From Nitrospirota bacterium (GTDB lineage Bacteria; Nitrospirota; UBA9217), in the NCBI GenBank assembly GCA_963818475.1, contig CAWFSF010000005.1:384001-448000 (forward strand): a DNA stretch of 64,000 nt, given 5' to 3'. The translations under genes were made by a program, and so were the position numbers. The notes below the pieces were generated by a model, which searched no databases, had not been told where the DNA came from, and saw nothing but the letters and a program-made list of their open reading frames with translations. Below are positions 13,866 through 35,336 of this stretch, in pieces. Numbering within the stretch: position 1 is the first letter of the stretch; each line of letters opens with the position of its first letter.

Positions 13866-15262
13866 TGTCAAATGTCAGGACATCGGTTACCCGATTCTAA
13901 TGGTCCCATATATCAAGACATCGGTTACCCGAGTCTGATAGTTTGCTCAACTGGTAGTAAATCGTCCGGCATTAGGTACTCAAAAGTATCGACGATGTCA
14001 TTTCCTAGATAGAGCTGCACAGCATGTAGATTCGTTACAATCTGTGCCCTGACATAAGAGTATATGAGGTCTCTTGATACCTCGAAACGTTCTCCAAAGA
14101 TATCAAGCTGCCGATTGCTCCGGATGAACCGTACGAGAGATACATTTCCATCCGGGATGAAGCTAAGATCCGGCATCTTGCTATTCGACCTCACGGTTAT
14201 TGGCGCAAAGCCGTGGGCCAGTTTCATTTCATGAGCCGTTTTCCCTTTGAGGCAGCTGTATCGGTGATGCTTGTTGTGAAACCGTTGAAAATTCTTGTTC
14301 TGCTGTTTCAGCACAGCATAGCTTGAGAACCATTGCCGACGAAAGAACCGTTTGTCGTAGGTGTCATTGAAACGTTCCACAACGCCGTTACGCCATGGTT
14401 CTCCGATCGGGATGAATACCGGATGGACACCGTAACTCAGACAAAGCCGTATGACCATCCCCATGGACCTGGGATGCCGGTTGCTGCCCCGGAAGTTCAG
14501 CGCGTTGTCCATCTGCAGGTAATCAGGGATGCCCACGGTCTTCCAACAGCGCAAAAGGCCTTGGCAGACGTGGGAATCCTGTTTCGTTCTTTGAGCCTCG
14601 GTGTAGACTTCATGGCTGAACAGATCAATGACATTCAGCGCATAGAATCTGCCGTCATCTTTAATGTAGCGCGGCCCCACCAGGTCCATCTGGTGGATGT
14701 TGTTGCATCCCAAGGCTTCGGTGAAGTACGGGTATTCGACCCCTTTGGGCGCATAAGCTGTTTTTTTTAACGAGCCCTTCGCGTTTCAACACCCGGTTTA
14801 TCGTGCTGTCCGAGGGAAACGGCAACCCTTGCTTCTTAAGCTCCCATTTTATGGAGGAAACTCCAATTTGGGCATAAGGGGCATCCACCAAGTTTTGTCT
14901 GGTCGAAAGAATACGCTCTTTCGACTTCTCGTCGATTTCTGAGGGCTTTGTTTTGGGAGCGCGAGATTGCTCTTTGTACCAGTCGGGTCCGCCGGTTCGA
15001 TATCGTATCAGCCATTTGAAGAACCACTTTTTGGATCGGTTCAGGCTGGTATAAACATCCTTTGGCGATTCGCCTCCCTGGATGTGTCGGCTAATAGCTG
15101 CCTGTCTGAGTTCTTCTTCCATAGAGGCTCTCCTTCTTGATTCAGATTAGGAGAGCATGATAGCATCAAACAGCATTAAGGAAACTGACATCCTAATTTA
15201 AATGGATTTCGGGTAACCGATGTCTTGACATATCCGGGTAACCGATGTCCTGAAACTTGTCA
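13866..15262 (-). mobile_element. IS481-like insertion sequence, apparently complete
   Basis: TIRs TGTCAAATGTCAGGACATCGGTTACCCG / TGACAAGTTTCAGGACATCGGTTACCCG with internal repeated GACATCGGTTACCCG; ATTAAT duplicated at 13860-13865 and 15263-15268. Confidence 0.88.
13925..15122 (-). CDS. DDE transposase (HTH + integrase core), split at an A8 run
   Basis: ORF1 HTH SKKWFFKW...SRAP; ORF2 HQMDLVG, QMDN, NGVVERFN; joined at 14761-14768. Confidence 0.85.
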
Positions 15263-16970: not shown

Positions 16971-17402
16971 TCAGTATGTTTTCCCCGGCTCAGGCGGACA
17001 AAAATTCACGTTATCGTAATAAGGATAGATGTGGAAGTTAGGGGCGGGCTTCTCGTTTATCTCATAACCATGCTTCCGGAAGGCCGATTTCAGTGCACCC
17101 TGCTGTTCACTGCCGAGTGAGGTGTATAGGCGGTCCAGTTTTTCCTGAGAACGATACGTGCATTGGGCTTCAAGCAACCCGGTGCGCACGTCTGCGGGCA
17201 GCGCTGCATCGGTCAAAACCGCCTCAAGGTCCCCTGACGTGCACAACATTCTATAAAGGGTTTGATCCTGACTGCCGAAAAAATAGGTATTGCAGTCCTT
17301 TGAGACGAGAAACGTCTTTGCGCAGCCGGTGAAGAGCAATGATGCCGATATCATTACCAGCAGCTTCCGGAGTGAAGTCATATGAAGAGCGGTATTCGTC
17401 AT
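16971..17402 (-). CDS. Hypothetical lipoprotein
   Basis: Lipobox-like LFTGC after a hydrophobic stretch; start uncertain. Confidence 0.6.
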   Translation of the reverse strand: MTNTALHMTSLRKLLVMISASLLFTGCAKTFLVSKDCNTYFFGSQDQTLYRMLCTSGDLEAVLTDAALPADVRTGLLEAQCTYRSQEKLDRLYTSLGSEQQGALKSAFRKHGYEINEKPAPNFHIYPYYDNVNFCPPEPGKTY

Positions 17403-17453
17403 AGATTGTTTAGGTTTGCCACGGTCTGCGTGAAACATCAATACCTACCGTCC

Positions 17454-17777
17454 TTATGAATCGACGAGACGGAAGCCGGCGTTCTTCCATCCTTCGACAC
17501 CGCCGCCCAGGACCTTGGCATTCGGAAATCCCTGCGCCAGATATTCCGCTGCCCGACCGGCAGCGCTCGCTTCTTTCTGTCAGGCTCAGTAGAAGATGAT
17601 TTCCTGGTCTCGGGACAGGGAGGGCAACCGCGCCTTGAAGTCCTGCAGCGAGATCGCGGCCTCAAGGTGCGTTTTCCCGAACTTTTCCACGTCCTCGTAC
17701 GCGCATACCAGAAGGGCCTCTCCGGACGTCACCTTCTTGCGCGCCTCTTCTGCCGATATTCTTATTGGCTCGGTCAT
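17454..17777 (-). CDS. Rhodanese-like protein read through two in-frame TGA (putative UxU selenoprotein), 107 aa
   Basis: ...DQEIIFY-TGA-A-TGA-QKEASAAGRAAEYLAQGFPNAKVLGGGVEGWKNAGFRLVDS-TAA; rhodanese C-terminal motif in the same frame. Confidence 0.8.
17547..17566 (-). promoter_or_regulatory. Putative bacterial SECIS hairpin
   Basis: CGCTGCC-GGTCG-GGCAGCG starting 14 nt after the second TGA. Confidence 0.65.
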
Positions 17778-17968
17778 GGCGGGCCTCCCATCGGTGGATA
17801 GGCTGTGAATGAATAAAGGATAGCATAGACCAGAGGGAGATGCATGGGGAGTGATCTCAAAAGCGGCGGGAGGGCATGAAATGAAGAATCGGCAGGATAA
17901 CCTGTTTTCCCTGTTAGAACTTGTTCTTCTTTTAGAAGAATCTTCAATTTCCGCTTTGTTCTTTTCAT

Positions 17969-19050: not shown

Positions 19051-19993
19051 ACCCTTTTAGGGTCAAGTCGCTTTTGTTGCATTCTCATATTCACGCAACC
19101 ACCGGCTTATCGTCGAACGGTGGACTGCGAGGTGTCGTGCAAGCTGACTTTGATGATAGCCGTACTTCTCTACCGCTTCTATCAGTTTCTTCTTCAGCTT
19201 TCGCTGATCGGCGTTTATCGATTCTGGCAACAGCTTTGACAATGCGGGCCGCGTTGAGTATCGCTGGCTCCGAGGAATCTCGGGGATATCCTGGTGTTTC
19301 CTGAGATGATCCACCAACGTCTCGACAAAGTCATCCTCGCCCAGGAGCGCCTGCCCCCTCACCGCAGTCCAGATCGTTTCTTCCCCGATCCCCCATCTGA
19401 TGAATTGCCGGTACTCGCTTTCCGCTTTTCCACGCTTTCCACTGAACTGCCCGAGCACCCAATCCGTAGTCAGGCAAGGGTGGGACTTCGCTTGGCCCGC
19501 TGTGGCCAGATAACTGGACCACTTCCAGGACTCCGGTCCTTCAACCATCCTGGCTCGCACTGGATTCAGGACAACATAGCGGCATACTTCCAGAAGATGG
19601 CTGTCTTTCTGGATCAGTATCGCCTTGTAGCGACCTTGAAACAAGTGTCCGTTCCTGCCGTGATATTTGTTGAAGAGCTGCGTGTAGACACCGTTGAGCT
19701 GCCGCATGCCAAGGGACAGATTGCCTTCGGGAGTCTCGATGAGAAGATGGTAATGGTTGGTCATGAGGCAATAGGCGTGACAGTTCCAATTGTACCGTTT
19801 ATTGACGTGCTGGAGAGTATTCAAAAAAACTTCCCGGTCATGATCATCCTTAAAGACAGGCTTCTTCTCATTCCCGCGGGAAGTGACATGGTAGACTGCA
19901 CCTGCGTATTCTATGCGGAGAGGGCGTGACATGGGGTGAGCTTAGCAGAAAAAAGGACGTATTGCAACAAAAGAGACCTGACCCTAAAGGGTC
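19051..19993 (-). mobile_element. RAYT/Y1 transposase element with inverted-repeat ends
   Basis: acccttttagggtcaagtcgcttttgttgca (19051-19081) is the near reverse complement of tgcaacaaaagagacctgaccctaaagggt (19963-19992). Confidence 0.75.
19063..19932 (-). CDS. REP-associated tyrosine transposase (HUH Y1) with C-terminal HTH
   Basis: MSRPLRIEY, YHVTSRGN, YCLMTNHYHLL, YVVLNPVRA, WSSY. Confidence 0.9.
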   Translation of the reverse strand: MSRPLRIEYAGAVYHVTSRGNEKKPVFKDDHDREVFLNTLQHVNKRYNWNCHAYCLMTNHYHLLIETPEGNLSLGMRQLNGVYTQLFNKYHGRNGHLFQGRYKAILIQKDSHLLEVCRYVVLNPVRARMVEGPESWKWSSYLATAGQAKSHPCLTTDWVLGQFSGKRGKAESEYRQFIRWGIGEETIWTAVRGQALLGEDDFVETLVDHLRKHQDIPEIPRSQRYSTRPALSKLLPESINADQRKLKKKLIEAVEKYGYHQSQLARHLAVHRSTISRWLREYENATKAT

Positions 19994-35249: not shown

Positions 35250-35336
35250 GCCGGCGTGGTGAAACTGGTAGACGCAGAGGACTCAAAATCCTCCGGGGGC
35301 AACTCCATGTCGGTTCGATTCCGACCGCCGGCACCA
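35250..35336 (+). tRNA. tRNA-Leu (CAA)
   Basis: GCCGGCG acceptor stem, anticodon loop CT-CAA-AA, long variable arm, GGTTCGATTCC, 3' CCA. Confidence 0.95.

Follow-up and report, generated by a model that had tools for sequence, protein, structure and literature searches.

The window analyzed here, a stretch of 64,000 nucleotides from a Nitrospirota bacterium (C5:384001-448000 of genome G000, an assembly of 4.66 Mb in seven contigs), carries on its minus strand a small rhodanese-like gene in which two in-frame TGA codons, separated by a single codon, are followed by a hairpin within the coding sequence (Table 1). A preliminary description of this DNA, made from the sequence alone, had proposed a candidate protein with two selenocysteine (Sec, U) residues. 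Translation of the minus strand from the ATG at 17777-17775 yields 63 sense codons ending in ..IIFY (MTEPIRISAEEARKKVTSGEALLVCAYEDVEKFGKTHLEAAISLQDFKARLPSLSRDQEIIFY), the codons TGA-GCC-TGA at positions 64-66 and then 41 further sense codons (QKEASAAGRAAEYLAQGFPNAKVLGGGVEGWKNAGFRLVDS, final residues GGGVEGWKNAGFRLVDS) up to a TAA, giving a read-through product of 107 aa. This is the frame that had been described, with a 63-aa open reading frame (ORF) that stops at IIFY-TGA and continues through GCC-TGA. The rhodanese domain call was confirmed as well, as PF00581 (Rhodanese) matched residues 9-100 of the read-through product with an E-value (E) of 2.3e-9 and 38 bits, well above the Pfam gathering score of 22.2.

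The read-through product was modeled with AlphaFold2 from 41 family sequences (predicted local distance difference test, pLDDT, 89.4; predicted template modeling score, pTM, 0.84). DSSP assigned a strand to residues 59-63, a six-residue loop to residues 64-69 and a helix to residues 70-81, and the best structural matches obtained with Foldseek were single-domain rhodaneses (template modeling (TM) scores 0.71-0.77), namely GlpE (1gmx, 0.77), YgaP and BH2092. The six-residue loop between this strand and this helix begins, in rhodaneses, with the catalytic Cys. In the HMMER alignment, residue 64 coincides with a Cys that comes after the corresponding strand of YgaP and BH2092 and that we take to be catalytic in these proteins. 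Based on the modeled loop and on this alignment, U64 would occupy the canonical catalytic-Cys position and U66 the loop position +2; the loop of the model contains both residues, in agreement with the earlier placement of the two TGAs in the active-site loop. In the family alignment a nearly invariant Cys25 ends the neighboring strand (LLVCAY) and a nearly invariant Glu69 is located in the loop. The loop is acidic and lacks basic anion-binding residues, which argues against binding of thiosulfate; a redox-active pair (Se-S or Se-Se) or a relay of the persulfide/perselenide type may be more likely.

Relatives of the gene were collected by a six-frame search of 61 related genomes, which gave seven clear orthologues, then from all 64 genomes of the window's family, and by a combined pattern and tblastn scan of GTDB species genomes. 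The latter gave 80 loci spanning Nitrospirota, Thermodesulfobacteriota, Rokubacteria, Acidobacteria, Planctomycetota, Synergistota and others. Members with a C-x-U motif are present in bacteria that are cultured and harmless, namely Geomonas species and Desulfofustis glycolicus DSM 9705, which makes the biochemistry of the family testable. In a codon table of 88 rows, including three duplicate rows from the same genomes, codons 64 and 66 were TGC/TGT and TGA in 80 rows, TGA and TGA in six, TGC and TGC in one and TGC and GGA in one. Codon 64 was TGY (TGC or TGT) or TGA in 88/88 rows and encoded Cys in 82 of them. Since it is only ever TGY or TGA, this is the pattern of a Cys/Sec exchange and not that of a stop codon. 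When Cys and Sec were tabulated at both positions, as had been proposed at the outset, the homologues carried Cys or Sec at position 64 and mostly Sec at position 66, where Cys (L079, P0018 and P0044), Ser (nine proteins), Gly or Leu were rare; judged from these sequences, U66 is the predicted constant Sec of the family.

Within the window's own family the gene was found in 18 of the 64 genomes, half of them (nine) with U-x-U and the other nine with C-x-U, and the FY[C/U]xU motif was present in all rows. The U-x-U genomes (G000, G084, G063, G076, G022, G070, G030, G073 and G083) belong to five genera, and TGA-NNN-TGA is thus repeated in eight genomes besides that of the window, including assemblies of several hundred contigs. 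Three relatives deviate in other ways. At L133:4190-4198, close to a contig end, TGC-GCT-GGA places Gly at the Sec position and the hairpin is largely kept, while L079:2159-2167 reads TGC-TCC-TGC, with Cys at both positions, and the loop-closing pair of the hairpin is lost. In a metagenome-assembled genome of the Nitrospiraceae (L075:3998-4687, plus strand) no stop separates a C-x-U rhodanese frame from a following YHS domain (PF04945, E 7.6e-8); this potential fusion of natural origin, with a domain that putatively binds metal, was seen in one of 171 loci.

Metagenomes were screened for the pattern I-F-Y-TGA-NNN-TGA followed 18 nt further on by the top of a hairpin. The pattern was found in at least 120 metagenome stretches, and 80/80 of those fetched were family members. 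In an IQ-TREE phylogeny of 84 rows, all nine genomic U-x-U rows fell within one clade of 15 rows (support 100/99), in which well-supported branches force at least three changes between Cys and Sec. In a FastTree phylogeny of 147 genomic and metagenome rows, U-x-U was scattered through the family, with 24 changes by parsimony, at least five of which are forced; as the metagenome rows were chosen as U-x-U, the proportions on this tree carry no meaning and the scatter alone is informative. Judged from these codons and trees, position 64 has gone back and forth between TGY (Cys) and TGA (Sec) several times through changes of a single base.

The genome encodes the machinery for Sec insertion. All four genes that the preliminary description had suggested looking for were detected: selA (336.6 bits), pieces of selB directly downstream of it, selD (323.4 bits, with in-frame TGAs) and the gene for tRNA-Sec (63.2 bits, gathering score 47; tRNA-SeC with anticodon tca according to ARAGORN), with selA and selB split over several frames in the assembly. 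A sub-threshold match of the tRNA-Sec model within the window (35250-35336, plus strand, 39.5 bits) was set aside, as ARAGORN identified it as an ordinary tRNA-Leu (caa). TGA is the commonest stop codon of the genome, as 1277 of the 2496 open frames with 300 or more codons end in it; among the 97 family genes counted, 30 use it as their genuine stop. It is therefore an ordinary stop and not a reassigned codon in this genome.

The genetic code bears on an alternative in which the UGAs are read as Trp, Gly or Cys by local read-through or an altered code. A hint in this direction comes from a 5.8-billion-protein collection, whose best 120 matches were inspected. Among these, 37 proteins, including the window's own fragment, end after ..FY (63 aa), the point at which a gene caller halts in a U-x-U gene, 54 end after ..FYCx and 28 are full length, namely 16 with CAW, two with CxC, nine with CxS and one with CAL. 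The 16 full-length proteins with Trp at position 66 (FYCAW; including P0003-P0016 and P0021) originate from short metagenome contigs and are most simply explained as output of gene callers; probably the TGA was translated under a model in which TGA encodes Trp. If so, such Trp residues flag hidden selenoproteins in public protein sets. Considering also the use of TGA as a regular terminator, the complete Sec machinery and a covarying hairpin (see below), decoding as an amino acid other than Sec is very improbable. Members of the family are frequent in the searched collections of genomes and metagenomes. The family is invisible in ordinary annotation, because gene callers truncate its members to fragments of 63 or 65 aa and the curated NCBIfam model misses the subfamily; NCBI lists one fragment of 63 aa as an ArsR-family regulator.

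The reliability of the sequence was addressed by comparison with independent data. The site is spanned by contigs of three public runs, each from a different study, at 95-99% identity, and positions 17580-17588 show no listed difference; the largest share of sampled words in any run was 0.18. The run contigs diverge from the window right after the stop codon, showing that the downstream context of the gene is not conserved, and the downstream flank differs even among relatives that are 94-99% identical. In the single RNA run examined, coverage was limited to 17455-17524 and is uninformative on expression. Among the nine U-x-U genes, the ratio of nonsynonymous to synonymous substitutions (dN/dS) of codons 67-104 was 0.03-0.53 (32 of 36 pairs with estimable dS), similar to that of the upstream part of these genes. 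Translation reaches codons 67-104 only after read-through of both TGAs.

These data speak to the possibility that errors of sequencing or assembly created the tandem TGAs, or that the gene is a pseudogene in decay. Broken frames do occur at other places of the assembly, selA and selB among them. However, both TGAs are retained in independent assemblies and in the public-run contigs, the same arrangement recurs in the eight further genomes and in the metagenome stretches, and dN/dS downstream of the TGAs is well under 1. Pseudogene and sequencing error are thus excluded as far as the comparison allows, and an artifact of this kind is hardly credible.

The hairpin CGCTGCC-GGTCG-GGCAGCG begins 14 nt past the second TGA, exactly where it had been placed, and was recovered in both the minimum free energy and the centroid fold of the surrounding 81-nt stretch. 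In an ungapped alignment of 88 genes over 72 columns, the 7-bp helix was paired in 85.7% of cells, whereas controls slid by 1-3 columns were paired in only 27-56% (maximum 56.2%). Columns 27 and 39, which are synonymous third-codon positions, combine as UA in 50 sequences, CG in 21, UG in 10, GC in two and AU in one. The covariation score of 0.280 compares with 0.162 in shuffled alignments, and none of 500 shuffles scored as high. The loop across the alignment is GGUC plus one variable base; in the window's gene it begins 21 nt past the second UGA and 27 nt past the first. Both the covariation at synonymous sites and a GGUC loop common to the genome's other selenoprotein genes support the view that the hairpin is a selenocysteine insertion sequence (SECIS), as its first reading had suggested.

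As an in-genome control, open frames of G000 with one TGA followed by a GGUC-loop hairpin were collected. Most of the 40 matches are apparently spurious, while six Pfam-confirmed frames stand in plausible or classic selenoprotein contexts (Table 1), and their UGA-to-loop distances define an apparent range of 18-26 nt. The second UGA of the rhodanese gene, with its 21 nt, lies well inside this range. Two of the control frames, both outside the window, deserve mention on their own. The triple-rhodanese protein L266 has its in-frame TGA at codon 70 (..YYCAGMTUAMS..), followed by a GGUCG-loop hairpin, and from its sequence looks like the catalogued 'UxxS' form of rhodanese selenoproteins. The frame L268 contains many CxxCH motifs, weak Pfam matches to cytochrome c7/c3 and a TGA at codon 217 (..HGPNNUGPS..), making it a candidate Sec-containing cytochrome.

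Table 1. Features of the rhodanese-like locus (window coordinates) and control frames of the same genome with a TGA and a GGUC-loop hairpin (genome coordinates).
Feature	Position	Strand	UGA-to-loop distance	Basis or remark
Predicted coding sequence of a 107-aa single-domain rhodanese-like selenoprotein	17454..17777	-		TAA 17454-17456 included; frame, PF00581, model, dN/dS
Shine-Dalgarno-like GGGAGG	17784..17789	-		6 nt before ATG; sequence reading alone
First in-frame UGA, codon 64	17586..17588	-		canonical rhodanese catalytic-Cys position; TGY/TGA in all relatives
Second in-frame UGA, codon 66	17580..17582	-		active-site loop, two residues in; TGA in 86/88 related rows
SECIS-type hairpin, 7-bp stem CGCUGCC/GGCAGCG, loop GGUCG	17547..17565	-		fold, covariation and in-genome controls
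Molybdopterin oxidoreductase (FdhA-type)			18 nt	..CARLUHS..
Molybdopterin oxidoreductase (FdhA-type)			18 nt	..ARIUHS..
NifU-like protein (L269)	C1:230606-230884	-	20 nt	93 codons; PF01106, E 4.5e-8; TGA in C-W-Q-U
Triple-rhodanese protein (L266)	C5:496561-497730	+	21 nt	390 codons; PF00581, E 9.9e-49
AhpC/TSA-family (Prx-like) protein			26 nt	WUxxC
Multihaem cytochrome-like frame (L268)	C1:198939-200894	-	26 nt	652 codons

The fold of the 81 nt around both TGAs showed no second hairpin, and the simplest reading is that one hairpin serves both UGAs. The alternative that bears on this point is that only U66 is efficiently decoded as Sec, while translation mostly ends at the first UGA, which would act as a leaky attenuator, perhaps dependent on selenium, and leave little full-length product in U-x-U carriers. 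Bacterial Sec insertion is inefficient, two UGAs in series must reduce the yield, and the first UGA is located just beyond the range of distances of the genome's other candidates. Furthermore, the stems of U-x-U genes tend to be longer (mean 6.20 bp, n=76) than those of the other set (5.48 bp, n=52; Mann-Whitney p 4e-4), which could reflect compensation, and their folds are more stable (-16.75 versus -14.74 kcal/mol, p 7e-4); the two sets compared come from different collections and contain mutually related sequences. In five well-supported phylogenetically independent pairs, however, the trend was not significant (sign test, median p 0.5), and a stronger SECIS in U-x-U alleles is an unproven hint. 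Mere termination at codon 64 is also at odds with its restriction to TGY and TGA, with the full-length database proteins for which the stretch was shown, all of which have Cys at this position except for one row with its motif match elsewhere, with the persistence of U-x-U across five genera and the metagenomes, and with the purifying selection on the part that depends on read-through. We therefore regard an attenuating first UGA as unlikely, though less so than the other alternatives.

Taken together, these results suggest, with a probability of about 0.8, that the locus is a functional gene for a small, 107-aa single-domain selenoprotein of the rhodanese fold with two Sec residues (U64-A65-U66) and one SECIS hairpin. 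The candidate double-selenocysteine protein of the preliminary description is supported by the Sec machinery, the retained TGAs, the Cys/Sec pattern and the covarying hairpin, its three proposed refutation checks all having turned out in its favor, and from these sequence data we infer that Sec, and not another residue, would be inserted at both UGAs.

Several points weigh against this interpretation. The selenium in the protein is a prediction from sequence and model, and the proposed Se-Se or Se-S chemistry is likewise deduced from modeled residue positions. The first UGA exceeds the largest distance among the other candidates (26 nt) by 1 nt, and two UGAs should compound the inefficiency of recoding. 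The folding energy of the 81-nt stretch is ordinary (z 0.12; 106 of 200 shuffles fold as well), and an Rfam scan of 17300-17900 with E up to 10 returned only a chance-level match to lysM-Actino (E 6.7). Because of this ordinary energy and the missing Rfam match, the support for the hairpin is comparative and not thermodynamic. The genes selA and selB, adjacent at C6:1736434-1739560, are each spread over several frames, with junctions that lack long homopolymers and may be assembly indels, which is the reading preferred here, or real breaks; in four of five U-x-U-bearing relatives selB is uninterrupted (634-639 codons) and scores above the curated cut-off. Finally, no conserved neighborhood was obtained, the largest cross-lineage cluster of neighbors comprising 7 of 171 loci, which favors no particular function.

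In the proposed mechanism, the SelB/tRNA-Sec system would recode both UGAs, and the single SECIS within the coding sequence, with its GGUC-type loop at 21 and 27 nt from the UGAs, would direct both insertions. The [C/U]-x-U pair may then form a redox-active selenenylsulfide or diselenide center, or a persulfide/perselenide relay, and the role of the protein may be redox or stress-related rather than that of a classic thiosulfate sulfurtransferase.

Beyond the single gene, the balance tips slightly towards the view that DQEIIFY[C/U]xU proteins make up a large selenoprotein family, for the most part unannotated, whose catalytic residue has changed between Cys and Sec many times beside an obligatory second Sec and whose U-x-U members have two insertions programmed by one SECIS. 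If true, the family supplies active sites of both the Se-S and the Se-Se type as a natural series, the bacterial SelB-SECIS complex could, within two elongation cycles, be reloaded or act across 6 nt, and the hairpin stem of U-x-U alleles may have grown longer to meet this demand. Proteins with two Sec residues are rare in bacteria. The family is a natural test of how far a SECIS reaches from its UGA and of whether one hairpin can serve two UGAs six bases apart, and it provides a case of Cys and Sec replacing each other at the catalytic residue in a fold that is well understood.

The surroundings of the gene were inspected in the window and across the loci. In the window, the gene is flanked by a lipoprotein-like ORF, a glyoxalase-family protein, an SDR, a nucleotidyltransferase (E 1.4e-4 and 22.3 bits against AbiEii, just below the cut-off of 22.5 bits), an IS200-type transposase and ORFs without a Pfam match. 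Genes of mobile elements are located on both sides of the rhodanese locus: two overlapping ORFs at 13925-15122 (minus strand), whose translations read like a split transposase or integrase, and an IS200-type Y1 transposase with C-terminal helix-turn-helix domains at 19063-19932 (minus strand). An initial clustering of neighbors was set aside, since it was dominated by antisense ORFs over the rhodanese gene itself. Neighbors within subclades include OsmC-like, pirin, molybdopterin-binding, PEBP and GNAT proteins; they hint at redox or stress roles, too thinly to name a function.

Compared with known rhodaneses, the family shares the fold, the strand-Cys-loop-helix geometry and the six-residue loop of GlpE (1gmx), YgaP (2mrm, 2moi) and BH2092 (3o3w). 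These proteins carry only Cys, whereas the family presented here has [C/U]-x-U-x-x-E with the conserved Glu and the extra Cys25. In E. coli fdhF-type SECIS elements, the hairpin is located inside the coding sequence just 3' of the UGA and has a GGUC-type apical loop. The hairpin described here is of the same kind, and in the FdhA-type genes of the genome the loop is found at 18 nt; unlike the fdhF-type element, the hairpin of the rhodanese gene must serve two UGAs at 21 and 27 nt.

Rhodanese selenoproteins with a single Sec, the existence of which had been assumed in the preliminary description, are indeed catalogued as a CxU form ('COG0607 form 2' and 'form 3', model NF041203) in two reviews from 2022 and 2026 (PMC9312934; PMC13188914), the second of which attributes the CxU rhodanese to Zhang & Gladyshev (2005). 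NF041203 (rhodanese_LYCAU) was the top NCBIfam match for 41/41 family members scanned (best E 3.5e-19). The window protein resembles it in its single rhodanese domain and in Tyr-Cys-x-Sec in the active-site loop, with Sec at +2, but differs by its second Sec; its score of 46.9 bits falls short of the cut-off of 115, and the match is confined to profile positions 57-121 of 126. Because of the low score and the partial match, the protein is assigned to a sister subfamily (DQEIIFY[C/U]xU, ~105 aa) and not to NF041203 itself.

Double-Sec arrangements are uncommon among the 119 selenoprotein families listed in a 2026 review (PMC13188914), the vast majority of which have a single Sec and a small subset two or three. 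Its table contains no UxU rhodanese, and the only rhodanese with two Sec given there is TsoB (UxxxxU), a fusion protein. TsoB (NF045694) resembles the window protein in having two Sec close together in a rhodanese domain, but the latter has UxU in a lone 107-aa domain and is not a rhodanese/DsbD fusion-like protein. The TsoB model matched only 12/41 family members (best E 5.5e-6).

The closest precedent is a UxU form of a rhodanese-related sulfurtransferase from metagenomes of Olavius algarvensis symbionts (Zhang & Gladyshev, 2007; PMC1976440), and in full-text literature searches for a UxU rhodanese no mention besides this one was found. In both cases two Sec are located one residue apart in a rhodanese selenoprotein; the likeness concerns the motif as described there, and the two forms may belong to one subfamily. 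The 2007 paper gives 0 Cys homologues for its family, and Cys forms are rare in the DQEIIFY[C/U]xU family, too. According to that paper, the Olavius form belongs to deltaproteobacterial symbionts, whereas the window form occurs in Nitrospirota and many metagenome lineages with repeated switching between Cys and Sec. Of the unusual UxU protein postulated in the preliminary description, the arrangement stands, but the form is not new, as it was reported in 2007, and it is widespread; the label 'Se/S-transferase' given to it there is a conjecture.

The C-x-U rhodanese selenoprotein is thus already known, and the U-x-U form was briefly reported in 2007 (PMC1976440). New are the members from Nitrospirota, the recurrent exchange of Cys and Sec at codon 64, the routine mis-annotation of the family as fragments of 63 or 65 aa, the wide distribution of U-x-U, the placement of both predicted Sec residues in the fold and the calibration of SECIS spacing within the same genome.

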